From an uncultured delta proteobacterium (GTDB lineage: Bacteria > Desulfobacterota > Binatia > UBA9968): 64,000 nt of DNA. The notes under the pieces were generated by a model. It saw only the letters and a list, made by a program, of their open reading frames with translations, ran no database searches and was not told where the DNA came from. The stretch's first letter is position 1; each line of letters begins with the position of its first letter. The position numbers were made by a program, and so were the translations under genes. Shown in pieces: positions 1 to 58,503 of this stretch. Where the stretch lies: contig CAWFJP010000030.1 in the NCBI GenBank assembly GCA_963816145.1, forward strand, positions 256,001-320,000, written 5' to 3'.

Positions 1-2397
1 CCGCTGAATAAGATCATCGTCCGGCTTGAATTCTAAGTCATCGAGCGATTCTCGAAGCTGGTCAAGCATCAACAAAGATTTAGTGTGAAACCCCCTTGAT
101 TCGGCGCCGGGTCCGGTTAAGTCCACCAACTTGTCAAAGGCTTGTTCGCGCAAATGTTGCCGTAAAAGTGGGTTAGTTGCCTTTAACGATAACTCCCGAG
201 ATAAGACAGCCTCCGAGTGTTTTATCAATGGATCAGAGGGGCGCATACGTGAAGCTGCATCTAAATACTTTTTTGCAAGCTCCAGACTACCTCCTTCGTG
301 ATTCATTTCAAAAATTGCGTGTTGTTGCAGTAAATACGGATCCTCACCGGCAATCTCATGTGCTGCATCATAAAACCGTCTACCCAACTCCTGGGACCGA
401 AAGGTATCGCCAACGTTTCTACCCCTGACCAATTGCCAAAATGCCGTCGAATCACACGCGTAGTCGAGATTTAAACCTTTTAAGAGTCGCAAAAGCACGT
501 CAAACCGCTGTTCTGGATCCACCAATACCTGCTCGAAAACCAACTGCGCTACGTGTTGATGGCGAGCCGCATACATCATATCACCGCTATATTTGTCGTG
601 CCTCGCAGTTAACACATGTTCTAACGGCAGAAAAAACCGGTCTCGAAATTCGTTGAAGCGAATACCACTAACCCTAGATATTAATCCCGCTCGAACGGTC
701 ACACCTAAACGATTAAGAGCGCAGACATCTAGATACAATAGTTGAGCCTCGGTAGGCGAAATACCTCTGTACTCATCCAACAGAATTTCCTCGAACGGTC
801 GCCCCAACGTCAATTCGTGAAGAGCAACGAGCAGCTGTCGTTCCGCACGTTTGACAAAAGCGTCCAAGCGCTCGGGAAAGGTGAGGTTTTCGAGCAATCC
901 AAGAGCACGATGTGACTCAAGAAGTTCCAAAAGATCGCGGATTTCACGTTCGTTAAGAAACCGAACCGGAAACTCATTGCTTACGAACGGATCCAAATCA
1001 GCACACCGAATATTCCATTCGTTATCACGTTCCGCACCAATAATCGTAACTGGCAATTTCTCCGCCTTGCAGCTTCTGAGTAAAGCCTTTACCTCGTCAC
1101 GAAATGTAGCAACTCGGTCAACAAAACAAAAAATGCGTTGTTTTGTAAGTGCGGAAACTTCACGAATAGCATCAAATCGGAGAGAGCCACCGGCTTTCAA
1201 AAACATTACGACCTTTTCAAATTCATGTGCAGCTTCCCATGCTATTCTCTTCAAGCAGACCGTTTTTCCATTTCCCGCCGGCCCTTTCAACACATAGAAA
1301 TCTACAAGATCAGATCGTTGCTCTTCTTCTGGTAAAATCGCGTCGACTATTACCGTGTCAGTTATAGCTCTTCGCGCGTCTAATTTTTGAGCTATACACC
1401 CCCATCCTAAATCGTAACCCCGATAAAATTCTGCTGGACGCTGCGATTGAATTGGCATGTCAGGAAATACATGATCCACATCATCGGACAAAAAAGAAAG
1501 AAGCAGATCGCTCTCATTCGGATGAGCGACACCGAAATACGCACGTAGTGATGACTTTCCACCACCGTAGGACCGGGGCAAAATCCTTTGGTTCTTGGGA
1601 ATTGCTTGGCTAATCGCTTCGAGAAATTTGTCAAACGTGGCATCAATTGGTGTAACTCGTTGCCGCGTCCAATAGCGCTTTTCAACATCTTCCAAATTCG
1701 GAGCTACGCAGAAGTAGCCCGGCCGATGCAGGTTTTCATCGAATAAATCAAACAGAATCGCCTGGATATGGGGGTCACTTACTGAATAGCCACAGAAAAT
1801 AAAAGGAAACTCTCGCCCCCAATCTCGAACTCGTTCAAAAAGGCGACTGCGCTGCTGCGACCATTTTGCGTATTGTTCCGTCGCTAAGATGAATGGCGCG
1901 TCACGGTCATAAGGATGTCCGATACAACCATGCAATTTTACATATTGTAATGGAAAGGGATATTTCTTCATCTCCGTTTCTATTAATTGACCATTTTTGA
2001 AAAACGGAATCAGCTGCTGGAGTTTCTCCCCCTGCTTGTCGTAAGCACTCTCGATAACAAGATCCAAATTCGTACTTATGATTGCATGCCAGCGAAACGT
2101 CGGAATCAGCTTGTGAAATTCGGCAGCCGAAAACTCTTTGAGTATTTCCGCAACGAAAAGCTGAACCTGATCGAGGCTGGCTTCGTTAGCGGCAAGCTCA
2201 GCGACTTCGGACAGACCTCGATGCCTGAGCTTACCCCCCAAGAAATGATCACAGATCTGATCCCGAAGCTCTGGGCCCGTGGGAATAGACGCCGCTCGTG
2301 GATGTAAAGCACCGCGGCTTGCGCCTGCTCCAAGGAATAACACTGCTCGTTGCTCCGAGACAGCGGCAATTAGGGCCGGTGGTAGTTCGATATCCAT
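1..2397 (-). CDS. SIR2-like NADase domain + P-loop (STAND-like) NTPase + helical/TPR-like region; Avs5-like defence protein, truncated by the window edge
   Basis: Absent from the ORF track because there is no stop in the window. Manual translation from ATG 2397 stays open for 799 codons: MDIELPPALIAAVSEQRAVLFLGAGAS..., IISTNLD, YVKLHGC, FIFCGYSVSDPHI (SIR2_2 motifs); Walker A GPAGNGKT (~1261-1284); Walker B IFCFVD; ERDNEW; TPR-like DPYLLQQHAIFEM...LELAKKYL. AT-richer than neighbours. Confidence 0.85.
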   Translation of the reverse strand, partial: MDIELPPALIAAVSEQRAVLFLGAGASRGALHPRAASIPTGPELRDQICDHFLGGKLRHRGLSEVAELAANEASLDQVQLFVAEILKEFSAAEFHKLIPTFRWHAIISTNLDLVIESAYDKQGEKLQQLIPFFKNGQLIETEMKKYPFPLQYVKLHGCIGHPYDRDAPFILATEQYAKWSQQRSRLFERVRDWGREFPFIFCGYSVSDPHIQAILFDLFDENLHRPGYFCVAPNLEDVEKRYWTRQRVTPIDATFDKFLEAISQAIPKNQRILPRSYGGGKSSLRAYFGVAHPNESDLLLSFLSDDVDHVFPDMPIQSQRPAEFYRGYDLGWGCIAQKLDARRAITDTVIVDAILPEEEQRSDLVDFYVLKGPAGNGKTVCLKRIAWEAAHEFEKVVMFLKAGGSLRFDAIREVSALTKQRIFCFVDRVATFRDEVKALLRSCKAEKLPVTIIGAERDNEWNIRCADLDPFVSNEFPVRFLNEREIRDLLELLESHRALGLLENLTFPERLDAFVKRAERQLLVALHELTLGRPFEEILLDEYRGISPTEAQLLYLDVCALNRLGVTVRAGLISRVSGIRFNEFRDRFFLPLEHVLTARHDKYSGDMMYAARHQHVAQLVFEQVLVDPEQRFDVLLRLLKGLNLDYACDSTAFWQLVRGRNVGDTFRSQELGRRFYDAAHEIAGEDPYLLQQHAIFEMNHEGGSLELAKKYLDAASRMRPSDPLIKHSEAVLSRELSLKATNPLLRQHLREQAFDKLVDLTGPGAESRGFHTKSLLMLDQLRESLDDLEFKPDDDLIQR

Positions 2398-2577
2398 GGG
2401 CGTGCCTTCTAATCCTTTTCCTTTGAGAATTCGGGTCAGCCGTAACAACTACATTAATCTATTTGCTTTTCGCGCGCGACCTTGCCAACGCCGCTACTAG
2501 CGGTCACTGCAGCTTTTGGATCCACTCAAATGAGTACTGGGATCATTAGAAACCCCAACAGGATCACGTCTTGCCTA

Positions 2578-3574
2578 TTAACCTTCTCCTTCGGATCTAG
2601 CGAAGTACGCTCTTAGCACCCGCATCATGTTGCCGCCGAGGATCTTGCCGATCGCCTCGTCGGAATAATTGCGCCGCTGAAATTCCGCCGCCAAATTGTC
2701 GCGGTCCAGCAGTTTGGCGCCGATGCCGTTGCGCCGCACGACGCGGTCGTCACTCCAGTCGCGCTTTTTGAGCTCCGCCGCGTAGGACGGCAGATACGGC
2801 GCGATGCGCTTGGTGTCTTTGTACGAGCGGTGATAATCGTCTTGCGCCGCCACGCCGATGTGATCGACGCCGACGAGCTTGACGCAGTAGTCGACCCAAT
2901 CGACATATTCGCCGACGCTGGTATTGGCGCGCACGTCCTGGCAGATCACCCCGCCCCGCTTCGCCGCCGCGACGATCAGCGGATCGGGCGCGCTGCGCGG
3001 CCGGTTGAACAGCGTGCGGCTAGTGGAGTGGCTGAAGATCACCGGCTGCTCGGACAATTCCAACGCTTCAAGGGCCGTGCGGTCGCCGGAATGCGACAGA
3101 TCGATGACGATGCCAAGGCGATTCATACGCTTGATCGCTTGGCGGCCGAGCGATGTGAGTCCGCTGTCGACCTCGCTGGCATGGCCGCAGCCGTAGTAGC
3201 TGTTTTCGCTGAAGGCCAGGGACAGACAGCGCAAACCCAAATCGAAGAAGGCATCGAGCAGTCCCAAACTGTCGCTCAACGCTTTGGGATTCTGCAGACC
3301 CGAGCAGCACTCCCACTTTGTTGCGACTCTCCTCGCGATCAAGATCGGCGCCGCTGCGCAGAATATACGCCTGGGGATGCTCGCGCACGATCGCCTTGAC
3401 GATTTCAAAGTTCTCGATGCTTTCAATCGTGTCGTCCCATGTCAGATTGGCGGTGCAACCGACCACCGCGACGTCTTGGCCCAGCAGTTGATCGATAAAC
3501 GGCGCCGACAAATCCTCCGGCCAGGGCGCGCCGAGACAGTTGACCACGCCACCATTGAATGCGCTTGTACTCAT
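2578..3574 (-). CDS. Membrane dipeptidase (peptidase M19) family protein, split by a +1 frameshift at ~3300
   Basis: N-terminal part MSTSAFNGG...KVGVLLG in ORF 3068..3715 continues as LQNPKAL...GLTSLGRQAIKRMNRLGIVIDLSH...PVIFSHS...VGVDHIG in ORF 2578..3426; extra G in GGG at ~3299-3301. Confidence 0.8.
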
Positions 3575-5171: not shown

Positions 5172-6173
5172 TCAATCGATGCGGTAAACCCGAACGGCGT
5201 TGTCGTGAAACAAAGCGGCGCGCTCGCCGGCCGAGTAATTCTGGGTGATTCGCTTGAAGGCGTTCCAGAGATTGACGTAAGTGTTCGAGGCTTTTTCCAC
5301 CGGGAAGTTACTCTCGAACAGGCAGCGTTCGACGCCGAACTTGTCGATACAATGCTCGATATAAGGTCGGAGAATCTGCGCCAACTCGAACGACGACGGC
5401 TTCACCCCGCGCTCGTGCCAGTCGTAACCCGAACGCAGCGAGCCGACCCCGCCCAACTTCACCACCACATTATTCAGTTGAGCCACTGCGGCGATACCGC
5501 GGCTCCAGTGGCGAAACACTTCATCGCGCTTACCGGCGTAGGGACCGACGCCGAGCGGCGCGCCGATGTGATTGACGATAATCGGAACTTGCGAGAACGT
5601 CCGCGCCAAATCGGCGACCTCGGTTAACTGCGGATGATAAACCCAAGCCTCAAAGCTCAGCCCAAGCGTTTCCAGCCAGGCAAAACCGGCGCGGAATTGG
5701 CTATTGGCCAACATTTCCTGCGACGCTTCATTACGTAAGGCGCCGCTGCCGTCCCAGGTCGCCGAGTGGCGAATGCCGCGGAACCGTTTGGGACTTATGG
5801 CGAGATGGGCTTCGAGCACCGGCGCCACCGCATCGCCCAAGGCGAGATTGGCGTGACCGACGATCGCCGCGGCGACGCGGGTTGCGACCGACGCGTCGCG
5901 CGTCACGCGCTCGGCGACCCCTTCGAGAAACTCGGTCTCGCCGAGCGGTTTGAATTCCATGGCGCCGTCCGGGCGATAACCGTAACCGCATTCGATCGCC
6001 ACGGTCGACACGATGTTGTGGCCGCTGCGCAGATCCTCAAGCAATTCATTGAGCAAGTAATCCCGGGGCGGCCGCTCCCAGAGGTGGTGGTGCGCGTCGC
6101 AGATCGGCAGCGAGGGATCAAGCGCCACTTCGGTTTCAATCGAGTCAGATTGTCGTGACCTTCGATCATCCAT
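5172..6173 (-). CDS. Amidohydrolase_2 family protein (lactonase-like)
   Basis: DAHHHLW, RFRGIRH, IIVNHIG, CLFESNFPV, FHDNAVRVY motifs. Confidence 0.9.
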   Translation of the reverse strand: MDDRRSRQSDSIETEVALDPSLPICDAHHHLWERPPRDYLLNELLEDLRSGHNIVSTVAIECGYGYRPDGAMEFKPLGETEFLEGVAERVTRDASVATRVAAAIVGHANLALGDAVAPVLEAHLAISPKRFRGIRHSATWDGSGALRNEASQEMLANSQFRAGFAWLETLGLSFEAWVYHPQLTEVADLARTFSQVPIIVNHIGAPLGVGPYAGKRDEVFRHWSRGIAAVAQLNNVVVKLGGVGSLRSGYDWHERGVKPSSFELAQILRPYIEHCIDKFGVERCLFESNFPVEKASNTYVNLWNAFKRITQNYSAGERAALFHDNAVRVYRID

Positions 6174-6201: not shown

Positions 6202-7440
6202 TTAGCGAATTTGCCAGGCCCGCGGCAGGGTCAAATGGATGGCGAGCATCGCCAGAGCCCCGGCTCCGCCCATCAAGATTACGGCCCATTGCGTGCCAAC
6301 AGCGGTCGCCAGCGCGCCGATCACCATGCTGCCAACCGTCATGACGACGTTGCTGAGCTGAAACATCGACATGGTGCGGCCGCGAAATTCCGGCGGCGAA
6401 TAGGTCTGCAAGACGGTTTGCACAAGCGCATGACAACAGACGTTGGCCAGACCGATGACGATCATCAATCCCATAGAGATGTGGAACCACGGCGACGCCG
6501 CGAAAGCGACCACACCGAAACCATAAAGCGCCGCGCCACCGAGCATGAACATGCCGCGGGGCAACCGCTCGCCGATCGCCGCGATCATCACCGCGCTACC
6601 CAGGGCGCCGATGCCCATACCGGTGAGCAACAGGCCCTGCCCCGAAGCCCCAACGCCAAGAATGTCCCGCGCAAAGATCGGCAAGAGCGTGGTAAACGGC
6701 ACGATAAATAACGAGGCCAGCATAACCACCAACAACCCGGTGCGCACCGTTTCATTGCGCCAGCTAAACCTCCACCCTTCGACGACACTGCGCGCGAAGG
6801 ACACGCCATGGCCGGCACGATCCTCCGCCGCCGGCGACTGGCCCGTGCGCGCGCTCAACCGCATCGTCCAGAAGGTCGCTAAGAACAAAAACAACGCCTG
6901 GGTCGCGTACGAGCCGAAGCTGCCCAATTTGGCAATCAGCACACCGGCCAGCGCCGGCCCAGTGCTGCGCGCCACGTTGAAAATGATCGAGTTGAGGCCG
7001 ATAGCATTGGTCAGATGACTGCGCGGCACCGCATCGGCGATAATCGCCGCTCTGGACGGCTGTAAGAAAGTCTGATCGATCGCCATCACGAAGGCGCTAA
7101 CGTAAACATGCCAAGGCCGAATCGCCCCGGTGAAAATCAGCATGGTCAGCGCCGCGAACATCAGGCCATCGACAATCTGCGCGATGAGAATTTGCTTCTT
7201 GCGGGAAAAGCGATCCGCCGCGCTGCCCGCCACCGGCGACAACAAAAGCGTCGGGATCGCTTGGACACCGCGGATCATGCCGAGTTGCAGCGCGGAGTCG
7301 GTCAGTTCGTAGATCAGCCAGCCACGCGAGACCTGATCCATCCAAAACGCCATCGACGCAAAAGAGTGGCCCAGCCAAAGCAAACGAAACTCACGATAGT
7401 GCAGAACTTCGACGGCACGATGTCGATATAACCAATCCAA
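6202..7440 (-). CDS. MFS transporter (MFS_3/DHA3-like), paralog 1 of a tandem triplet
   Basis: About 12 hydrophobic segments, FRLLWLG, AGSAADRFSRKK, RGRTMS. Confidence 0.9.
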   Translation of the reverse strand: MDWLYRHRAVEVLHYREFRLLWLGHSFASMAFWMDQVSRGWLIYELTDSALQLGMIRGVQAIPTLLLSPVAGSAADRFSRKKQILIAQIVDGLMFAALTMLIFTGAIRPWHVYVSAFVMAIDQTFLQPSRAAIIADAVPRSHLTNAIGLNSIIFNVARSTGPALAGVLIAKLGSFGSYATQALFLFLATFWTMRLSARTGQSPAAEDRAGHGVSFARSVVEGWRFSWRNETVRTGLLVVMLASLFIVPFTTLLPIFARDILGVGASGQGLLLTGMGIGALGSAVMIAAIGERLPRGMFMLGGAALYGFGVVAFAASPWFHISMGLMIVIGLANVCCHALVQTVLQTYSPPEFRGRTMSMFQLSNVVMTVGSMVIGALATAVGTQWAVILMGGAGALAMLAIHLTLPRAWQIR

Positions 7441-9115: not shown

Positions 9116-10354
9116 CTATTGAATCTGCCGCGCCTTGGGCAGCGTCACGTAGATCGCAATCATCAGCGCAGTACCGAGCAAGCCCATGGAGGTCACCGCC
9201 CAGCGCGCGCCGATGAGTTCGGCGAGCGCGCCGACAAACATCGCGCCAAGCACTAAAATTACCTGTGTCATATGAAAAATCGCCATAGTGCGGCCGCGCA
9301 TTTCGGCGGGCGAGTAGGCTTGAATGACGATCTGAATCAGCGCGTGGGAGGTGACATGGCAAAAGCCGATGAGCAGCATCATGATCATTGAAAGCGGAAA
9401 CCACGTCGATGCCGCAAAGATCGCCACCAGCACTCCGTAAATCGCCACGCCGCCGATGATAACGATGCCACGCGGCAAGCGATCACCCGCCGATGCGACA
9501 ACCACCGAGCTGAACAAGGCGCCGATGCCCATGGACGTTAGTAATAACCCCTGGCCTTTGGCGCCGGCATGCAATACATCCCGGGCAAAGACCGGCAGAA
9601 GCGTAGTGAAGGGTATGAGCAGAAACATTGAAATTGAAACGACCATCATGCCGATGCGCACTTCGAAATTACGCCAGCTAAACTGCCAGCCTTCGATGAC
9701 AGTGCGAACGAAAGATTCGTGTTGGCAGGCAGCATTCCGCCCCACCGCGTCCACGTTTTGATCGCGCCGCAACATGAAGGTCCAAATGGTCGCCAAGAAA
9801 TAGCAAAGCGCCTGCACGGAGTAGGATCCCGCAGTGCCGTAGGCGGCGATCACCACGCCGGCCAACGCCGGACCGGCGCTGCGCGCCGAGTTGAACACTA
9901 CGGCGTTGAGCGCCAGACCATTACTCAATTGGGCCGCTGGCACGGTGTCCGAAACCATCGCGACCCGCGCCGGTTGCTGAAATGTCTGAACGCTCGCCAG
10001 GCCGACCGACGTCACGTAGACCTGCCAGGGCTCGATGGCGCCGGTAAAAATCATCATTGCCATCCAGGCATAGAGCAAGCCATTCAAAGTCTGGGCGATG
10101 AGGATCTGGGTGCGGCGCGAATACAGATCGGCGACGCTGCCGGCAATCGGCGACAACAATAACGTCGGCACCGCCTGCACGCCGCGCACCAAACCCAGTT
10201 GAAATGACGAGTGAGTGAGCTGGTACATCAACCAGCCGCGCGCGATGGAATCCATCCAGGTCGCCATCGATGTAAAGACCTGGCCATACCAAAGGAGGCG
10301 AAACTCCCGGTGCTGCAAGGCCGCCAGAGCGCGCGAATTTAATAGCGCTCGCAC
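9116..10354 (-). CDS. MFS transporter (MFS_3/DHA3-like), paralog 3
   Basis: FRLLWYGQ, AGSVADLYSRR, YSPAEMRGR. Confidence 0.9.
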   Translation of the reverse strand: MRALLNSRALAALQHREFRLLWYGQVFTSMATWMDSIARGWLMYQLTHSSFQLGLVRGVQAVPTLLLSPIAGSVADLYSRRTQILIAQTLNGLLYAWMAMMIFTGAIEPWQVYVTSVGLASVQTFQQPARVAMVSDTVPAAQLSNGLALNAVVFNSARSAGPALAGVVIAAYGTAGSYSVQALCYFLATIWTFMLRRDQNVDAVGRNAACQHESFVRTVIEGWQFSWRNFEVRIGMMVVSISMFLLIPFTTLLPVFARDVLHAGAKGQGLLLTSMGIGALFSSVVVASAGDRLPRGIVIIGGVAIYGVLVAIFAASTWFPLSMIMMLLIGFCHVTSHALIQIVIQAYSPAEMRGRTMAIFHMTQVILVLGAMFVGALAELIGARWAVTSMGLLGTALMIAIYVTLPKARQIQ

Positions 10355-10736
10355 CGCCGCCGCGTAAGGCGATGCGGGCGAATGAGGATCGGCGCTTGCA
10401 ACTGGCCGCTCATCATTTTTGTCGGTCGGTAAATCCAGAGTCGTGCTCGTGTCGGCGGGAAGCGAATCGATATGCTTTCGCCAAGAATAAAATTTCTTCT
10501 TGGCTATAACACGCGACTCAATAGGGTTCTAGCAAAGACGCGCGGAAGTTCGATCGCAGCTAAGCTATGGTTTTCACGGTTTGTGATTCCCCTGCAGAAA
10601 TGGCCGATTTAGTTCGCCGCAAAAATCTGAATTCCTGCTTCGGATCGAGTCCAGATAGGATGTGCGCCAGAATGACGGCGGTCAACCTCCCGCCGACATC
10701 TAGTTCGAGGAAACCGGGCGTTGGGCGTGGAAATAA

Positions 10737-11381
10737 TCAGTTCAGCGTCACGTACTTCTCGAGACGCGCCACTTCTTTTTTGTCGACATATTTGCCGATT
10801 TCTTTGCGGAACTGTTCAAGGGTCGTCCAGGGGCGGTATTCTTTGAACTCACGCACCATGCGCTTACCGGCGCCGGGGATCGACAGAATATCGTCATCGC
10901 TGGCGCTATTAAGATTCACCGGCACAAAGACGTACTGCTCCAAGCGCGCGACTTCTTTGACATCGACATACTTGCCGATCTCCTTGCGAAACTGGCCGAT
11001 GGTCTTGTACGGCCGATATTCGCGGAACTCACGCACCATGCGACTGCCGGCGCCAGGGATCATCAATATTTCCTCTTGGCTGGCCGTGTTCAGGTTGATC
11101 TGCACAAACATCTTACCGTAGAGTTCGGCGAGCTGTTCTTTGCTCAAAGATTTCGCCAACAGTGCATTGAGATCGGCCATCTGCAAGAACGGCCGCTGTT
11201 CGAGAATACTTTTGACGATCGCCGCATTCATGTGCGGCAAGGCGAGCAGATCCTTTTCGCTGGCGAGGTCGGGGTTGACCAATTGCGATTGGCCGACTTG
11301 GCCGTGTGTCACAGAGATCCCGCTCAGAGCGAGCGCAACTGAAACAAAAACCGCAAATGAAAATCGTCGCAATTGAAACAT
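10737..11381 (-). CDS. Secreted helix-hairpin-helix (ComEA-like) repeat protein
   Basis: Signal peptide; two near-identical ~60 aa units (INLNTASQEEILMIPGAG / VNLNSASDDDILSIPGAG) plus a divergent first unit (VNPDLASEKDLLALP). Confidence 0.8.
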   Translation of the reverse strand: MFQLRRFSFAVFVSVALALSGISVTHGQVGQSQLVNPDLASEKDLLALPHMNAAIVKSILEQRPFLQMADLNALLAKSLSKEQLAELYGKMFVQINLNTASQEEILMIPGAGSRMVREFREYRPYKTIGQFRKEIGKYVDVKEVARLEQYVFVPVNLNSASDDDILSIPGAGKRMVREFKEYRPWTTLEQFRKEIGKYVDKKEVARLEKYVTLN

Positions 11382-11853: not shown

Positions 11854-12110
11854 ATTCTAAGCCGCTCGGAGCATCGCATCAGATACATATCGATTGGACG
11901 AGTCGCTGCTGAAACTGGTGTACGGCCGCGCCTGCAATAATTTAAAATAATACCTATTCCCAGAATATAGAAAGTCCCATCAGGAGATTCCACCCGTTAG
12001 GAATGATGCACTGCTAACGACGCGAATTCCGTCGAATATTTACCGCAAGCAATCTGGCGCAGCGTTTGCAGTTGAGCCTCAACGAACAATTTTTCCATCG
12101 GAGGTTTGCA

Positions 12111-12356
12111 ATGAATCGGCATCTTCTACAAGGCATCGTCGTCGGCGCGCTGTTCGCGCTGCCGATCACCTGGATCGCCGCCTCGGACGCTTTAGCCGCA
12201 GGCAATTTTTTTGAGATACTCGCCAGCACAGTATTCGGCTTAGCCGCCGGACTCTGCGTCGGCGCTCTGATCGCGGCTAACTTCGCCATGTTGGCGCTGG
12301 AAGAAAAGGAACACGTGGTGGCACATCGACACGCGGAAGCTCACGCCCACGCGTGA
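12111..12356 (+). CDS. Small hypothetical membrane protein with His-rich C-terminus
   Basis: GGAGG RBS before ATG 12111; two TM segments; ends HRHAEAHAHA. Confidence 0.6.
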   Translation: MNRHLLQGIVVGALFALPITWIAASDALAAGNFFEILASTVFGLAAGLCVGALIAANFAMLALEEKEHVVAHRHAEAHAHA

Positions 12357-50840: not shown

Positions 50841-51650
50841 ATGAACCAAGAACTGACCGCCAGCATCCCCTATACCGTGGACACGGGTGAAAAACTCGTG
50901 AACGAAACCTTCGGCCCGAATAACATACGGCGACGCAAGACGGGCAGCCACGAACTCATGACCATGGCCGTGCGCAATGGCCGGTTGCTTGGCGGCGAGA
51001 TTTCACTGGAGCAAAACGGCTTCGTCTTGGTTGACCACAAAACCAAGGTCGCCGACTTCTTCGATACCCGGCAACTTGAGTCGGTGTACTACCGGGAAGT
51101 CGAGCAATTGATCAAACGAGAGTCAGGCGCATCCCGGGTGGTGATTTTCGATCATACGCTACGCTCCGGCGACGAAGCCGAGCGCGAAAAGAAGCTGATC
51201 CGCGAACCGGTCATGTCGGCGCACAACGATTATACCGAATGGTCGGGACCGAACCGAGTGCGCGAGTTTCTGCCGGACGAAGCGGAAGACTTGCTGACCC
51301 GCCGCTTCGCGATCGTTCAAGTCTGGCGCGCGATCAATCAACCGATCCAAACCAATCCCCTCGCGCTGGCCGACGCCAAGAGTGTGGCGATGGAAGATCT
51401 GGTCGTCGCCGAGCGCCGCTACCCACACCGGGTCGGCCAAACCTATCGATTGAAATACAACCCCAATCATCGCTGGTATTATTTTCCCGAGATGCGCCGC
51501 GACGAAGCGCTGGTGTTTAAAGTCTACGATTCCGAAATGGACGGCCGCGCGCGCTTCACGCCGCACACATCCTTCGACGATCCCAACACTCCGGCCGGGG
51601 CTCCGGCACGGCAAAGCATCGAAGTGCGCGCTTTCGCCTTTTATAATTGA
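50841..51650 (+). CDS. CmcJ/NvfI (AsaB-like) family oxidoreductase
   Basis: FDHTLR, AHNDYT, QVWRAI..PLALAD, HRWYYFPEM, FTPHTSF, RQSIEVR. Confidence 0.85.
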   Translation: MNQELTASIPYTVDTGEKLVNETFGPNNIRRRKTGSHELMTMAVRNGRLLGGEISLEQNGFVLVDHKTKVADFFDTRQLESVYYREVEQLIKRESGASRVVIFDHTLRSGDEAEREKKLIREPVMSAHNDYTEWSGPNRVREFLPDEAEDLLTRRFAIVQVWRAINQPIQTNPLALADAKSVAMEDLVVAERRYPHRVGQTYRLKYNPNHRWYYFPEMRRDEALVFKVYDSEMDGRARFTPHTSFDDPNTPAGAPARQSIEVRAFAFYN

Positions 51651-51714
51651 ACATTCCACAGCGAGAATTCACGAGAATGCGATTCAAGTCGACTCAAAGT
51701 TGACTTGCAAATTT

Positions 51715-51793
51715 CTGTCATTCCGGCGTCGGCCGGAATCCAGGTTTGTTCCGCTGAACTCTAAGCTGGATACCGGCTTTCGCCGGTATGACG
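51715..51793. repeat. TGTC/CGTC-type REP dimer
   Basis: CTGTCATTCCGGCGTCGGCCGGAATCCAG...CTGGATACCGGCTTTCGCCGGTATGACG. Confidence 0.8.
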
Positions 51794-51901
51794 GAACAGC
51801 TCTTCATCAGAGGCGATGCTCAATTCGGGTGACGGTGCGGCCTGATTTCAATCTAAACCGAAATGGCGTGCGGAGTTTGGAAAAAATTTCTCGCCGAACC
51901 A

Positions 51902-51929
51902 TTCACAAGTTTTTCTGCTTTGCTATAAT
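51902..51929 (+). promoter_or_regulatory. Putative sigma70 promoter (extended -10) upstream of the transposase-PolA unit
   Basis: TTCACA-N16-TATAAT with TG at 51921-51922. Confidence 0.55.
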
Positions 51930-52180
51930 CATCTGCGAACATCAACCTTCCGAACTGTGAGCGTTTGATCCTGTTTTGCATTCAACTATCGCGTCACGAG
52001 CTTACGGCGACGCTTGGCGCAGCCCGATAATCGCCAAGTTCCGGCGCGCAATCCATTGATGGAGAAACCGAATCAAAATGTCTAAACCTATGCCGAAACC
52101 CGAGGTGGCTCGTAACAGGTTATTGCGTTGCCGCCTGTAGGGCGAGAATCTATGATTGCAAGGCTCCCTGCTAAAGTTCC

Positions 52181-53833
52181 ATGAGAATAGCCCAGTCGGT
52201 TCAACTAACCAAAGACGAAATACGGATACTGACGAAATGGGCACGAGGTCGTCGGACCCCAACTCGGCAGATGCAACGAGCGAAGATCGTTCTATTGGCC
52301 GCCGAGGGACATCAGAATAATACGATCGCGAACATGCTGGGCATTAACCGAGTGCGGGTGGCGCGCTGGCGCCAGCGGTTCGCAAATCATCGGTTAGCAG
52401 GAATTGAAAAAGATGCTCCACGATCAGGCACCAAGCGTCGCTTTGACCAGAATTTGGGGCAGCATGATTCGGCGACTCTGGAGCAGCATCTCCACACAAA
52501 ACGATTGTATCGCGATTTATCCAGCAAAGCCGATGTTTCCGACAGCTCCCCCCACACCATCCATGTAATTGACCCCTTACCACCTTCGATAGCACTGTCA
52601 TCCCAGCAACGGGAGGCCCTTGATGCGATCGTTGAAGAGCAACCGAGTCTTCCAGCCTCAGAGTGGCCTGCACGCGCAATTTTAATGTGGAGCAACGGAG
52701 TCACACAATCAACTACGGCTCGGGATCTCGGTATTAGCGAGGAGACCATCAAACTTCTACGTCATCGCTGGTTGTCATCAATGGACCGTATTGATGCAGC
52801 AGAGAAGAGGTTGACCAAGGAATTGACCAAGTTCTTGTCACTCATTTGTCAGACTCTAAGCGAGGAAACACCTGCCGAAACGCCACTGGATGCTCCTGCG
52901 GATATCGCCAAAACAAGAACCGCCAACCGAGAGAAGCCAACTACGAGTATTGAATTGCGACCGGCGACTAACGCACTAATCGAGATCCTTCATCACAAGC
53001 CAAACGTCTACGGAATTAACAGAAGCAATTGGAACCAACGAAGCCTCGCGCAAGCATTTGAAATACTATATGGCCAGAGGCCATCAAAAAGTACGGTATC
53101 CCGGCTATTGAAGCAAGCTGGTCTCAGCTGGAAGAAGTCGAGAAAAGTTTTGACAAGTCCAGATCCCAATTACCGCGAAAAGGTCGAGTTGTTATTAACA
53201 ACACTCCAATCTCTGAAAGCTGACGAGGATTTGTTCTTTATAGATGAACTAGGACCACTTCAGGTCAAAAGGTACGGAGGTAGATGCTACACTCCGAGGG
53301 GAAGCACGCCCACCCATCCGCAGAATCAGCGTACGAAAGGGTCTATCACCTTATACGGGGCGTTGAGTGCTACCACCAACCAAGTAACTTGGTTCTATAG
53401 GAATACGAAAGACTCAGCGGGAATGATCGACTTAGTCGAGATAGTTTACAATCAGCATCACGACAAAGCGAGAATCTATCTGACCTGGGATGCTGCCTCT
53501 TGGCACGGATCGAATGAGTTGGTGGAGTGGGCTGACAACTTCAATTCTTGGAACAACGCAAACAGCACCGGCCCAACTATCGAGTTCGTTCCGCTCCCGG
53601 CGAGCGCACAGTTCCTGGATGTCATTGAGGCAGTTTTCAGTGCTATGAAAAAGGCAGTGGTCCACAATTCGGACTATCAGTCGGAGGAAGAAATGAAGAC
53701 TGCCATATCCGTGCACTTTTGTGAACGAAACGAGTTCTTTAAACACAACCCCAAACGCGCCGGCAAGAAAATATGGCAAATAGACTTCTTCGAAGACCAA
53801 AACTACATACGGTCTGGGAACTATAAGGAATGA
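52181..53833 (+). mobile_element. IS630-family DDE transposase, elongated (550 aa) with an extra N-terminal HTH module
   Basis: N-terminus RAKIVLLAAEG...VARWRQRF...DAPRSG; second HTH ARAILMWSNG...ARDLGISEETI; PNVYGINRSNW...STVSRLLKQAGLSWKK; catalytic FFIDE, TWDAASWH, LDVIEAVF. Confidence 0.88.
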
Positions 53834-53839
53834 AAAGGC

Positions 53840-56143
53840 ATGAGCCAGTTTTTGGTCGATACAGCATTTATCATCGAGCGGACATACCAGACGTTCTTTG
53901 GGACTCCGCTTCTGACAGCACAGGGAAGCGACCTTACTTTCACCTTCGCCTTTGCAAGAGATTTTCTAAGGCTGCGATGCGAGTTGAGTATTAAGGCGGG
54001 AGTTCTGGTTATAGGAAGGGAATCTCACTCACTCACCACCCATCAGAACATTGAGAGTGTTATTATTTTTCTTCAGCAACTGAAGATTCCTTACATCCAC
54101 GATCCGGCGAATCCCGGTTTAAAAATCATCGCCTCTATCAGTTCCCAATTCACGCATATCGTTTCGGGGGACAAGCGATGTCTACAACTGTGCAGCGACG
54201 ACCTTACCGTCGTCCTCGTTGGAGGTGCTAGCCGCTACCAATACGACTGGATGTCCGCGGATAAGGTCGGAACGAAGATGGGCATCGCTCCGAAAGATAT
54301 ACCCACCTACCTAGCGTTAACGGAAGCATCGAACGCGCAAGCAATAACCAGTAGACAAGCGGTCCGGCTCATCGAGCTGTATGGCGACTTGGATTCTATT
54401 TACGAGACCCTATCAAAGGTCGCGTCAGGCCAAATCCGAAAGACGCTGGTAAAAAACGAGACTCGAGCCCGGGATTACTATTCGGAGAGTAAAGCTAACC
54501 GAGCCAAGGAGTCATGCTCCTGCAATGTTCAAACCTTTTCTTTGAGCGACTTGGACACTGACAGAAATCGGCAACTTTTGAGAACTCACGGTTTTCACTC
54601 ACTTTTGCCACTATTGGCAAATCCTACGGATGCCCGGCTGGATTTGAATGAGATTACACCCAGACCAGACGCCTATCACGCCGTGGTTGACGTAAAGGGG
54701 ATCCTAGAACTCGAATCTTTGCTTGTGTCATCAAAGCAATGTTCAATAGACACAGAATCCGATGACAAGGATCCTAGGGAGGCACATTTACTTGGAGTTG
54801 CCTTCTCGGTAAAGGGCGGAGAAGCTTATTTCGTCCCGCTGATCGAGGAGGACCTCAAGGGATTGACCAAAGATGATGTGCTGAAGTTTCTAAAGCGGGT
54901 ATGCGATAGCGACATAGGTTTCATTGGACATAATATAAAGTACGATCACTTACTCCTCCGGCGAAACGGCATAAGGATTAAGTCGATTCACTTTGACACG
55001 ATGCTGGCCGCCTATGACTGTCATGGTGACTGGGACTTTTTCAATCTTCGTGACTTAGCTCAGAGATTCCTGCACGAGAAAATCAAATCCTACTCGGATT
55101 TGGTCGATGAAGGCAAAACCTTTCTAGACTTGCCCTTAAAAGAGTTGGTTAACCACGCTTGCCAGGACGCTGACGTGACCATGCGACTGTATCCCATTTT
55201 CTTGGCGGAGTTGAACGATCGAAATATAATTGAACAGTATTACGAACATACCATGCGTCAGATGATGCATCTAGCTGAGCTAGAATTCCAAGGGATTGCA
55301 GCAGATTTGGGGCAAATCGATGCGATCAGGCGATCTCTTGGTAAAAAGGCTTCTGACTTGAAGGACGATATCTGTAGAAAAGTGGGGATAGCCTTTGACC
55401 TGGACTCGGAGAAGGATCTTTCGGGAGTATTTAAGGAGGCTATAGTTTTGAGGGGCTATCTCGCGCCAAGAAAGATCACGATGGCAATATTAGAGCAGAT
55501 GGCCATTAGCGATCCGATTATGCGTTTGGTCATTCAGTATAAAAGACTCCGTCGTCGTATTTCGGGGCTGGAATCGATCTCCGCTTCTGTAACTGACGGA
55601 AAGATCTATCCGCTCTTTAGTCAAATTAAATCTCGTGCTGGTCTTCTGACCACGGTCAAACCAAGTTTGTTCGAGAACGATACATTGCCAGAACTCAAGT
55701 CTTGCTTCGATAGCGGTGTAAGGGATTATTTCAGGGATAGACAGCGAGCATTGGACACGTTATCGCAAGTGACTCATGATACTGCCCTAAGCGAACGCCA
55801 GACGTGTAAGTCTAACGCCGACGTTTTCACGACGGATCAAGTTGGGATGCAGAACCTTGACCACGAAGAATGCTTGCTTTCTCTCGCAGTGGGCCATTCC
55901 GATTCACAGCTGAGTAAAATGTTTCTCATGGATCGACCGAAGGTTGACATGATGCGGCATGATTTCACCAAGAGATATTCGACTATGTTTCGGTGGCTGG
56001 ACAATTATCGCCGGAAAGCCCAGGCAAACGGCTATTCCGCGATTAACGGCAAGCGAAAATACATTGATGGTCTCAAGAGTTCAGATATTTCTAGGAGAGA
56101 ACGAGCAACGGAACATGTGGTGAGGTGGTTGATACGTTATTAA
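53840..56143 (+). CDS. DNA polymerase I-derived protein: degenerate 5' nuclease, intact-looking 3'-5' exonuclease, degenerate and truncated polymerase domain
   Basis: FLVDT...IVSGDK...LIELYGDLDSIY (5'-3' exo fold); SIDTES, IGHNIKYD, FDTMLAAY, HACQDADVT (ExoI-III); thumb ELEFQGIAAD/FDLDSEKDL; ends at ...RERATEHVVRWLIRY before motif C. Confidence 0.85.
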   Translation: MSQFLVDTAFIIERTYQTFFGTPLLTAQGSDLTFTFAFARDFLRLRCELSIKAGVLVIGRESHSLTTHQNIESVIIFLQQLKIPYIHDPANPGLKIIASISSQFTHIVSGDKRCLQLCSDDLTVVLVGGASRYQYDWMSADKVGTKMGIAPKDIPTYLALTEASNAQAITSRQAVRLIELYGDLDSIYETLSKVASGQIRKTLVKNETRARDYYSESKANRAKESCSCNVQTFSLSDLDTDRNRQLLRTHGFHSLLPLLANPTDARLDLNEITPRPDAYHAVVDVKGILELESLLVSSKQCSIDTESDDKDPREAHLLGVAFSVKGGEAYFVPLIEEDLKGLTKDDVLKFLKRVCDSDIGFIGHNIKYDHLLLRRNGIRIKSIHFDTMLAAYDCHGDWDFFNLRDLAQRFLHEKIKSYSDLVDEGKTFLDLPLKELVNHACQDADVTMRLYPIFLAELNDRNIIEQYYEHTMRQMMHLAELEFQGIAADLGQIDAIRRSLGKKASDLKDDICRKVGIAFDLDSEKDLSGVFKEAIVLRGYLAPRKITMAILEQMAISDPIMRLVIQYKRLRRRISGLESISASVTDGKIYPLFSQIKSRAGLLTTVKPSLFENDTLPELKSCFDSGVRDYFRDRQRALDTLSQVTHDTALSERQTCKSNADVFTTDQVGMQNLDHEECLLSLAVGHSDSQLSKMFLMDRPKVDMMRHDFTKRYSTMFRWLDNYRRKAQANGYSAINGKRKYIDGLKSSDISRRERATEHVVRWLIRY

Positions 56144-56204
56144 GCGCCAGTATGTGGACCTATCCACCAGCCAGTTTTGAGATCTAACCTCAATTTCTGA
56201 ACCA

Positions 56205-56235
56205 GGATTTGGGTAGCGTCCTAAATCCCAATTTT
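56205..56235 (+). terminator. Possible terminator hairpin after the PolA-like gene
   Basis: GGATTTGGG-TAGCGT-CCTAAATCC followed by CAATTTT. Confidence 0.35.
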
Positions 56236-56467
56236 GGCCTGGGAACGTTTGACACCGGTTTAGCTTGACCCCAAGTTAATTCATTTCTCGCATCGAAGGA
56301 TTAACAAACCCATTCGCTCTGATATATTAGAGATTAACAATCGGAATCGCTCGTTTGTCAGCACTGAGTCAATCATTCGTTGGGGGGTACTTAACTGTGA
56401 TTTATTCAGCGCCGACCCCGCCGATTTGGTACCACACATTCTATGCTATGGAGAGCCGTGAATTGAG

Positions 56468-58503
56468 ATGTCTAAAGCTATGCTAAAAACCGAAGCGGTA
56501 GCCACGCCGGCGCCGCCCAGCGAACCGCGAAAGATCGTCACCGCCGCCGAGATGGGCGCGCGCCAGAGAGAAATTTCCGTATCGGAATTTTTTACCAAGA
56601 ATCGCCACCTGTTGGGCTTCGACAGTCCGCGCAAGGCGCTGCTTACTTGCATCAAAGAAGCGGTCGATAACGCACTGGACGCTTGTGAAGAAGCCGGCAT
56701 CTTGCCCGAAGTCATCGTCAAGCTCGAAGTGGTGCCCAATGGCGGGATTACGGCGGCGCCGAGCCAAGCAACGCGCTTTCGCGTCACCGTGATCGATTAC
56801 GGTCCCGGCATCGTGCGCCAGCAGATTCCGCCGATTTTCGCCAAGCTGCTTTACGGCTCGAAGTTCCATCGTTTGCGCATGAGCCGCGGCCAGCAAGGCA
56901 TCGGCATCTCCGCCGCCGGCATGTACGCCCAGCTCACCACCGGCAAGCCGGTGCAGATCATTTCCCGCACCAGCGCCAGAGCGCCGGCGCACTATTTCGA
57001 AGTCCAGATCGACACCAAGAAAAACGAGCCGCGCATTTTCGAGAGTAAGAAAATCGACTGGGAAAACCACCGCGGCACACAGGTCAGTTTAGAAATCGAA
57101 GGGCGTTATCAAAAGGGCCGCGCCTCGGTGGATGAATATTTAGAACAAACGGCCATCGCCAATCCGCATGTCAAGCTCGTCTACCATACGCCTGAAGGCG
57201 AGATAAAGCAGTATCCGCGCACCATCGAAGAGCTGCCGCCGCAACCGCGCGAGATCAAGCCTCATCCCTACGGCATCGAGTTCGGTATGATGCTGAAGAT
57301 GTTGCACGACACCAAAAGCCATTCTCTGGTGGGTTTTCTGTCCAGCGAGTTTAGCCGGGTGTCATCCAGTCTGGCTCAAGAGATTTGTAAAACCGCCAAA
57401 CTCTCGCCCAACGCCCGGCCGCGCGATCTCCATGGCGCCGCCGCTGAAACCTTTTACAAAGCCATGCAGTCGACCAAGATCATGGCGCCACCGAGCAGCT
57501 GCATATCGCCCATCGGCGAACGGGCGATATCTGCACGGCCTGTACAAACAGATCAAAGGCGAATTTTACACCGCTGTGACCAGGCCGCCGGCGGTCTATC
57601 GCGGCAATCCGTTTGTCATCGAGGCCGGCCTCGCGTTCGGAAAAAGTCCGGAGCAGACGGTAAAAGTCAAAGAACCAAAGCATCCCGCTCGCCGAAGGCG
57701 AAGACAAAGACGACGACAACGAATTGGCGAGCGTGATCCGCTACGCCAATCGCGTGCCGCTGCTCTACCAGCAGTCGGCTTGCGCGACGTTTAAATCGGT
57801 CCTCGACACCACCTGGCGCAATTACGGCGTGGCGCAGTCGCGCGGCGCCCTGCCCGCCGGGCCGATGGTGATCTTCGTGCACATGGCGTCGGTCTGGGTG
57901 CCGTTCACCAGCGAGTCCAAGGAAGCCATCGCCGACTACGACGAGATTCGCAAAGAAATCAAACTCGCTCTCCAAGAGTGCGGCCGGCGGCTGGGAGTCT
58001 TCTTGCGGCGGCGCGAGCGCGCCAAGGGGGAATTTCGCCGGCGCAATATCTTCGCGCTTTACATCGAGGAAGTCGTCGATGCCTGCGCACGCTTGAAAGG
58101 CGGCAAGCTCGCCAAGGAAAAGCTCAAAGAACAGTTGCAAAAGATCGCCAGCAAACGCACCGGCGGCGAGAAAACCGACGAGATCCTGGGCCACGATGGC
58201 GGCGGGCCTGAAGGCCTGCCTCATTCGATCATCGTCACCGCCGACGGCACCGAAGGCGATGCTCCTAGCCTGCCAAGCTCGGATGAGAGCGCGGCGATGG
58301 CGCCTGCCGCAAGCGAGACCGAGCCGGAGCTGCCCATACTCGTCGACGATGATCCGGCGCCAGCAGCCAGAAACAAAAACGTCCGTGTAAAAGCAGCTAA
58401 TGCCGATCAAGCCAAAGATGGCGCGAAACAGATGACGCTAGCCTTGGACAGAAGGGCCAAACCTACAGGAAAGAAAGATGGCGGCAAAAAAAGCAAAAAA
58501 TAA
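56468..58503 (+). CDS. top6B: DNA topoisomerase VI subunit B, with two +1 frameshifts (~57530 and ~57680)
   Basis: EISVSEFF.KN.HLLGF, KEAVDNALDA, DYGPGI, SRGQQGIGISAA, KPHPYG, TRPPAVYRGNPFVIEAG, RYANRVPLLY, VPFTSESKEAIA, spread over three frames. Confidence 0.9.

Follow-up and report, generated by a model that had tools for sequence, protein, structure and literature searches.

We studied a PolA-like open reading frame (ORF; 53840-56143, forward strand, 767 codons open) in a stretch of 64,000 nt from contig CAWFJP010000030.1 of an uncultured delta proteobacterium; the whole stretch is called the window in the following. Together with a preceding gene for an IS630-type DDE transposase, the ORF forms a two-gene module that moves horizontally. 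The module represents a precise, polymorphic and repeat-free insertion without any further gene. Judged by its motifs, the PolA-like protein is a derivative of DNA polymerase I (Pol I) that appears dead for both polymerase and 5' nuclease, and it seems to retain a working 3'-5' exonuclease site together with a thumb and fingers suited to holding DNA. We lean towards the reading that both proteins form one DNA-processing machine, most likely for the module's own insertion or excision.

The PolA-like protein, its family and its partner

The first-pass annotation of the window had described a PolA-like protein that keeps its exonuclease motifs while the motifs of the other two activities are lost, which holds for the window gene as well as for the family of 52 aligned members introduced below. 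The motif strings quoted at that stage are all found in the ORF translation (CSIDTESDD, GHNIKYDH, NHACQDAD, SRAGLLTTVKPSLFEN, VRDYFRDRQRALD, DHEECLLSLAVGHSD). For the canonical comparison, we aligned the protein with two PolA proteins of related genomes. Here, motif A of canonical PolA (DYSQIELR) lies inside a deletion of the PolA-like protein, and motif B has lost its Arg/Lys part. The C-terminus VRWLIRY faces canonical ALNAPIQG, so that the protein lacks motif C and ~80 residues of the canonical C-terminus. Downstream of the stop codon, all three forward frames contain further stops and none encodes an HDE motif. Both alignment and frame check thus agree with the earlier statement that the ORF ends where IQG would begin and that no VHDE is encoded downstream. 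Within the 5'-nuclease part, FDKGAPQFR is deleted, GYEADD is replaced by PANPGL and GEASDNLPGVPGVG by TEAS-----NAQAI. Three of the carboxylate clusters are thus deleted or replaced, and just D7 (52/52) and D111 (37/52) are left in the family alignment.

Profile searches give a corresponding picture. The Pfam 3'-5' exonuclease domain (PF01612) is detected with an E-value of 1.2e-15, while DNA_pol_A (PF00476; E-value 1.3e-12) matches at profile positions 5-294 of 381 only. The two Pfam 5'-nuclease models (0.0013 and 0.0021) stay below their cut-offs, and neither of the NCBI PolA equivalogs is reached (NF004397: 215.6 bits, cut-off 720; TIGR00593: 153.6 bits, cut-off 600). An AlphaFold2 model based on the family alignment has a mean pLDDT (predicted local distance difference test) of 87.8 and a pTM (predicted template modelling score) of 0.75. 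Foldseek places the model closest to the full-length structures of M. smegmatis Pol1, Taq and Klenow (6vde, 1taq, 8oo6), and among solved proteins, entries of the E. coli Klenow fragment are nearest in sequence (239 bits, residues 278-762).

Compared with canonical PolA of the same genus (~890 residues), the protein shows 22-25% identity, and no close copy of its gene was found in the 30 other genus genomes. (Genome counts for genus and order, i.e., this search, the PF00476 survey, the top6B orthologues and the donor search below, include one unpublished genome, G005; no claim is based on G005 alone.) The protein belongs to a distinct family of ~770-residue proteins from several phyla, which public records name "DNA polymerase I" or "hypothetical protein". 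Its best 120 protein matches are 488-775 aa long and comprise full-length members down to 39% identity at 100% coverage; among these best 120, no fused forms were found (length range 421-1343 aa). A search without word index yields full-length members down to 30% identity. There, the weakest listed member (762 aa) still reaches 361.6 bits compared to 193.3 bits for the best canonical-length protein (881 aa). A metagenome scan with the single PolA-like protein added 2 further family loci only. We found no family member in PLSDB (72,556 plasmids), where the 78 records are all below 60% identity, the listed rows show 20.6-23.3% and the annotated ones are polA. The same holds for the IMG/VR contigs, with best partial matches of 21-33%.

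The family alignment comprises 52 proteins of 759-779 aa, of which 49 end in the same column, down to 28% identity. Whether homologs share the end point had been suggested as a check of the annotation, and for these relatives they do. The exonuclease residues D304, E306, N365 and D369 are present in 52/52 and D443 in 49/52 members; at position 439, where Pol I has Tyr, 48/52 members have His and the other 4 have Tyr. The catalytic polymerase and 5'-nuclease motifs are absent from every aligned member. The closest homologs are equally truncated, i.e., they are not full-length active PolA proteins beside a uniquely degraded copy, and a read or assembly error is ruled out by the same architecture in 52/52 aligned relatives from independent assemblies.

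For the PolA-like gene, the ratio of nonsynonymous to synonymous substitution rates (dN/dS) is 0.278 and 0.28 relative to the two closest copies and 0.144 relative to a 55% relative; respective values for the DDE gene are 0.24, 0.238 and 0.091. The family is real and subject to purifying selection. The idea of a non-polymerising exonuclease scaffold kept by selection therefore stands in so far as the gene is selected rather than decaying (dN/dS 0.14-0.28) and has kept the respective motifs. Its implication that a host PolA was degraded in place has to be given up, given the low identity to PolA of the genus, the lack of a genus copy, the island's 47% GC and the two-gene arrangement with a DDE partner.

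In the partner protein, helix-turn-helix domains at the N-terminus are followed by a DDE_3 catalytic domain and by a conserved C-terminal extension that is specific to the family. The protein scores 175.4 bits with the NCBIfam IS630 transposase model NF033545 and is thus above the cut-off of 100. The triad D355, D437 and E483 is invariant in 20/20 aligned members, and so is the long C-terminal extension. Most members have ~423 aa and lack the first 125 residues of the window protein. In one locus (L034), a separate ORF with a PRiA4_ORF3 domain (6247-6909, forward strand) replaces the N-terminal part upstream of a 340-aa DDE core, an arrangement that suggests exchangeable DNA-binding heads on the DDE protein.

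Only 6 nt separate the end of the DDE gene from the PolA-like start. Restricted to loci with upstream sequence (L033 is too short and was left out), a DDE homologue is found immediately upstream of the PolA-like gene in 8/8 genome loci (L029-L032, L034-L037) and 2/2 metagenome loci (L133, L134), i.e., in 10/10 cases. The pairing of the two genes is invariant across the examined loci. The paired identities drop in parallel from locus to locus (80/76, 69/55, 59/34, 56/36 and 47/31%), and the neighbour upstream of the module is located on the same strand in 6/7 other loci. According to the record titles, the carriers are Deltaproteobacteria/Desulfobacterales, Pirellulaceae, Verrucomicrobiae, Opitutales, Bryobacteraceae and Nitrospiraceae. 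Besides the pair itself, the neighbourhoods of the family loci have no gene in common.

We also predicted the complex of PolA-like residues 1-462 and DDE residues 130-550, each provided with its own family alignment. The runs yield ipSAE interface scores of 0.73, 0.71 and 0.73, compared to 0.00 for the best of 3 controls; a score of this size is reached by 116/157 solved complexes and 2/215 mismatched pairs, which is a rough benchmark since custom alignments were used. The runs share at least 72% of their contacts, with a partner pLDDT of at least 71. The predicted interface is formed by the dead 5'-nuclease domain (residues 17-25, 36, 40, 130-132 and 251-257) and the DDE catalytic domain (residues 403-427, 454-464 and 502-510). 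Its contact residues rank among the most conserved ones, on the PolA-like side (F19 50/52, R40 50/52, S254 51/52, L255 52/52) and on the DDE side (Y406, E420, K506 and S510 in 20/20, N424 and Q425 in 19/20). That is, the dead 5'-nuclease domain is predicted to dock on the DDE catalytic domain. To our knowledge, there is no solved complex of this PolA-like/DDE kind.

A polymorphic island within top6B

The two genes are the only genes of a 4,390-bp island, the remainder of which is non-coding DNA of ~70 bp on the 5' side and 356 bp on the 3' side. While the genome has 56% GC, the PolA-like gene has 47%, and the respective GC dip extends from ~51650 to 56450; the tetranucleotide use of contig C30 agrees with the rest of the genome. 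In four congeners (G040, G002, G036, G004), a CmcJ-like gene is directly followed by an uninterrupted top6B (topoisomerase VI subunit B). Congener sequence aligns up to 52105-52109 and resumes at ~56435-56467.

The exact boundaries follow from a comparison with contigs of four metagenome runs (X1, X2, X4, X8). The runs X2, X4 and X8, which stem from three studies, each provide a contig that joins 52109 to 56500, i.e., 4,390 bases are skipped and no letters are shared between the ends. Over their flanks (left, 342 nt; right, 189-427 nt), these empty-site contigs differ from the window at 0-3 positions. Island contigs without differences are found in all four runs, and X1 provides a contig across the right junction. 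Since empty-site and island contigs occur in the same runs, the island is polymorphic within the species: it is present in some and absent from other members.

The insertion point follows the 32nd base of top6B, within codon 11. The empty site reads GGTGGC/AGCCAC (the slash marks the point of insertion), and the filled junctions read GGTGGC/TCGTAAC and GCGGT/AGCCAC. On the left, the interrupted native gene start (52059-52109) matches the only copy present in the X2 and X4 empty-site contigs letter for letter and aligns with relatives to its last base. This cut-off start runs into a 20-codon ORF with its stop at 52138-52140, which is followed by the DDE gene. The promoter-like region further upstream is common to island-less relatives and points into the island genes after the insertion; the module may thus be transcribed from a host promoter-like site.

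On the right, the island ends with a mimic of the target that provides top6B with a replacement N-terminus (MSKAMLKTEAV vs. native MSKPMPKPEVA), and the island's own promoter-like site is located 140 nt upstream of this mimic. The right and left copies are identical at 38/52 positions, with a local alignment score of 34 against a shuffle maximum of 24. Their distance is like that of the orthologues of other species (69-88% among themselves). Because the empty alleles carry the left version and the distance is orthologue-like, the right copy came with the island. We rejected a target duplication that diverged later, as the flanks differ by 0-3 letters and the repeat copies at 14/52 positions. 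A tract of homologous recombination into top6B was discarded as well, as identity to relatives does not fall after 56468. A donor of the right end (56200-56467) was searched in 123 genomes of the order, without a match.

The two closest copies of the module (83% and 86% nucleotide identity) are found in other contexts and share with the window only 52153-56233 or the sequence from 52175 onward. The conserved core thus consists of the two genes with almost no upstream DNA. In total, three copies at 83-86% nucleotide identity occupy three different contexts. Downstream of the PolA-like gene, a hairpin within 56144-56233 was considered as a terminator and dropped, since it is no better than those of shuffled sequences (z -0.52). 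Rfam has no match within 51000-57000. Coordinates of all features are collected in Table 1.

Table 1. Features of the island and its surroundings (window coordinates).
Feature	Coordinates	Strand	Evidence
Promoter-like site TTCACA-16-TATAAT, TG-extended, 5' of native top6B start	51902..51929	+	consensus scan only, 11/12
Native top6B leader, ribosome-binding site and first 10 2/3 codons (left repeat copy)	52059..52109	+	empty-site contigs
Inserted island, 4,390 bp, ~47-49% GC	52110..56499	+	empty-site contigs, congener alignment, GC profile
Gene of IS630-type DDE protein, 550 aa	52181..53833	+	Pfam HTH_23, DDE_3; NCBIfam
PolA-like residues 1-270: 5'-nuclease fold without catalytic carboxylate motifs; predicted DDE docking surface	53840..54649	+	alignments, AlphaFold2, complex prediction
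PolA-like residues 278-460: 3'-5' exonuclease domain, DEDD site, His for Pol I Tyr	54671..55219	+	PF01612, column counts
PolA-like residues 464-767 and stop codon: thumb, part of fingers, truncated palm	55229..56143	+	alignment, Pfam, Foldseek
3' tail common to closest copy L029 (module core 52153-56233)	56144..56233	+	blastn, pairwise alignment
Promoter-like site TTAACA-16-TATATT, TG-extended, inside island, facing top6B	56301..56328	+	consensus scan only, 10/12
Island-borne target mimic: leader, ribosome-binding site, in-frame replacement of 10 2/3 codons	56448..56499	+	alignment
First ORF of top6B, now starting inside island right end	56468..57736	+	Pfam HATPase_c; 77-94% identity to genus orthologues

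Broken copies are found in 3/9 genome loci (L029, L030, L037). Among the loci, flanking direct repeats stand out for the window (see above) and for L030 of Pirellulaceae (score 46 vs. shuffle maximum 25), where a 28-nt direct repeat (26/28 identical; 5994-6021 and 10665-10692) flanks the region. In the same locus, an ORF on the reverse strand (9765-10442) that resembles the N-terminal part of a tyrosine integrase, as judged by eye from its translation, overlaps and truncates the PolA-like gene. We thus dropped the L030 repeat as a candidate for the module ends, since the copy is truncated by the integrase-like ORF and the repeat may belong elsewhere. Downstream of the module in L035, repeats of ~100-160 nt (10589-10749 and 12105-12215) are multicopy in that genome and its relatives and unrelated to the module. 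In this locus, where an empty site was sought as well, the available assemblies are highly fragmented and the flanks rich in repeats.

Within the window, top6B consists of two overlapping ORFs, 56468-57736 (422 aa) and 57724-58503 (259 aa), while most congeners have one frame of ~690 aa. Short top6B frames are also seen in G004 and G039; the split in the window may be a frameshift, a sequencing error or natural. Upstream of top6B, ~51712-51797 shows hairpin-like arms and a summed contig depth of 400-3000 in the four runs compared to ~10 beside it. Its borders show many loose contig ends, and the sequence looks like a very abundant short repeat of many organisms, similar to miniature inverted-repeat transposable elements or repetitive extragenic palindromes.

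Readings of the two-gene module

For a machine dedicated to the module's own movement, which we hold to be somewhat the likeliest account, the following course can be envisaged. The Pol I-derived scaffold would bind a DNA end or junction and its exonuclease would trim 3' ends, while the DDE subunit would cut and join DNA at the site that Pol I leaves to its 5' nuclease. Together, they would serve insertion or excision of the module itself.

Several observations weigh against this account. Neither a TA nor any other target-site duplication was found at the window island. Terminal inverted repeats were not found either: respective scores do not exceed the shuffle maxima in 6/6 loci for two window settings, and a repeat search of the true island ends gave no inverted repeat. 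Both genes are single copy in the window genome and 5 other genomes likewise have one family copy each, which gives one copy per genome in 6/6 genomes checked. (Within the IS630 family, several copies per genome are usual but not obligatory.) Since the lack of inverted repeats, of a duplication and of further copies is unlike IS630/Tc1-mariner, the DDE protein may not be the mover of the module at all. Furthermore, homology to the closest copies begins 6-28 nt before the DDE start codon, such that no conserved left end is visible, and the island boundaries are set by the empty site at one locus only. The junction of a circle (56499 to 52110) is absent from the joints listed in the metagenome contigs. 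Finally, the complex is a prediction, made from PolA-like residues 1-462 only.

The same absence of inverted repeats, target duplication and further copies speaks for an accessory nuclease system, which has a real but minor share of our belief. That is, an exapted transposase and an exapted Pol I would jointly act in phage or plasmid defence or in DNA-end processing and spread as cargo, with the DDE protein cutting foreign or damaged DNA. A cellular function would fit the stronger conservation of the DDE protein compared to the PolA-like protein (67-70% vs. 52-54%, many members). The N-terminal DNA-binding parts of the DDE protein vary between members, and some neighbours are of mobile or defence type (SocA/Panacea, AAA_14-DUF4143, HNH, Macro, resolvase). 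Most neighbours, however, are ordinary metabolic genes, and the inserted unit consists of exactly two genes and nothing else able to move it. Among the 5,027 PADLOC models (PADLOC-DB 2.0), the PolA-like protein shows a weak DEDDh match (E-value 0.0018) and the DDE protein none. The absence of members from the plasmids and IMG/VR contigs named above also argues against such a system.

A more specific variant of the movement account, which we deem improbable, assumes a new kind of DDE transposon in which the polymerase-dead, Pol I-derived scaffold picks the site. The 52-nt mimic at the right end, which resembles the DNA left of the insertion point, would pair with the target. The Pol I-like subunit would hold the paired 3' end like a primer terminus and its exonuclease would proofread it. 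The docked DDE subunit would then join the end where the 5' nuclease of Pol I would cut in nick translation. If true, this would explain why homology is seen on one side only, as well as the exact register of the junctions and the lack of both inverted repeats and a target duplication.

The first-pass annotation had favoured a non-polymerising DNA-binding scaffold with exonuclease activity. As a stand-alone protein, such a scaffold would serve host repair or replication and perhaps replace Pol I. Such a role is in line with the retained exonuclease motifs, with the frame being under selection and with the absence of canonical polA from the genome. A separate canonical polA, which was to be confirmed according to the annotation, was not found: the PolA-like gene is the sole match of the family A polymerase model in the 99.5%-complete window genome, and a clean deletion is seen where synteny would place polA. 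There, C12 aligns with G004 up to 151427 and resumes at 151384, while ~4.3 kb with polA and one further gene of G004 are absent. The genome encodes a stand-alone 5' nuclease (C15:96588-97448; PolA equivalog 319.7 bits at model positions 1-286, catalytic motifs readable) and has a PolB-family match (C14:101502-102398), while no PolX thumb match was found in it.

What stands against this role is the distribution of both genes. PF00476 is found in 13/18 of the genus genomes drawn, 0/5 of a sister family and 6/7 of another family. It was not found in the congeners G036, G037, G041 and G007 (93-98% complete), which also have no copy of the module. The loss of polA therefore does not require the PolA-like gene, and the module is no stand-in for Pol I. 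In addition, the gene is missing in some members of the same species (empty-site contigs in 3/4 runs), is always paired with the DDE gene and is foreign by composition. We thus regard a stand-alone scaffold as unlikely. A link of the module to polA loss was rejected, since the 5 other carriers comprise 2 with canonical PolA, 1 with a divergent, 1 with a weak and 1 with no match.

Two further genomes show peculiar family A genes. In G040, which has the most similar Top6B (94% identity), polA (C8:38238-39326) contains an internal TGA with a 364-aa open frame, such that its loss may be in progress. G043, in which no canonical PolA was found, encodes a divergent family A polymerase (C19:75743-76777; E-value 1.1e-59, 849-aa frame) ~7 kb downstream of its module copy (L031/L122).

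According to the portion of a recent survey covered here, Pol I orthologues are present in ~96% of species, and most of the remainder have a stand-alone 5' nuclease (PMC12926913). The finding of a 7.8-Mb free-living bacterium and several congeners that lack Pol I and keep a stand-alone 5' nuclease agrees with and extends this picture of the remaining ~4% of species.

Lastly, a decaying pseudogene of a horizontally acquired polA that stays open by chance could account for the lost motifs of two of the three activities and for the 3/9 broken genome loci, but it is refuted by the conservation of the family with the same end point in 49/52 relatives. The dN/dS of 0.14-0.28 and a confident AlphaFold2 model also speak against a pseudogene, and we give it next to no credence.

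Relation to known systems

With canonical DNA polymerase I, the PolA-like protein shares the order and fold of the three domains as well as the DEDD exonuclease site. It differs by the lack of motifs A, B and C and of the 5'-nuclease carboxylates, by His in place of the exonuclease Tyr, and by its location on a mobile two-gene island.

The DDE gene agrees with IS630/Tc1-mariner elements in its model score above the IS630 cut-off, its layout of helix-turn-helix and DDE_3 domains and its invariant triad. In contrast, the island shows neither terminal inverted repeats nor a TA duplication, is single copy and has an obligatory second gene. The DDE protein itself deviates by the conserved C-terminal extension and a spacing of ~46 residues from the second Asp to the Glu, and there is no conserved promoter region of its own. 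Of the features that define IS630, we thus find the transposase alone, and the island is not filed as an IS630 element. A transposase of Tc1/mariner-IS630 type that goes without inverted repeats and duplication and has a predicted partner would represent either an undescribed transposition route or a bacterial domestication.

Precise insertion without duplication or inverted repeats is known from other elements. Insertion sequence families without terminal inverted repeats and duplication are IS110, IS200/IS605, IS91 and IS607. Phages and islands may carry a copy of the end of their target gene and thereby rebuild the split gene. The enzymes of all these elements are recombinases of the tyrosine or serine type or belong to the DEDD or HUH types. 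The island resembles the elements in its precise insertion and in an element-borne gene end that restores the frame. Unlike these, it holds no gene for such an enzyme, and the 5' end with a promoter-like site is replaced rather than the 3' end. The insertion exchanges promoter-like sites with the split top6B and rebuilds its N-terminus.

Full-text literature searches yielded no publication in which a PolA is linked to a transposase or described as polymerase-dead. In the portions of two recent surveys of family A polymerases covered here (PMC12926913, PMC10201439), the word "transposase" does not occur and no polymerase-dead group is named.

Finally, inactivated polymerases that act as partners are a further parallel in so far as a fold is selected after catalytic loss and partner proteins are involved. 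The respective examples are ImuB of the Y-family, described as catalytically inactive in the covered part of PMC12926913, and inactivated B-family modules of archaea and Pol epsilon, described likewise in part of PMC2669801. These known homologues belong to the Y- and B-families and work with other polymerases, while here an A-family protein has kept its exonuclease and is paired with a transposase. We rate the pair as an inactivated polymerase homologue together with an exapted or atypical DDE transposase, which adds an inactivated A-family polymerase as partner to the inactivated homologues known for the B and Y families.

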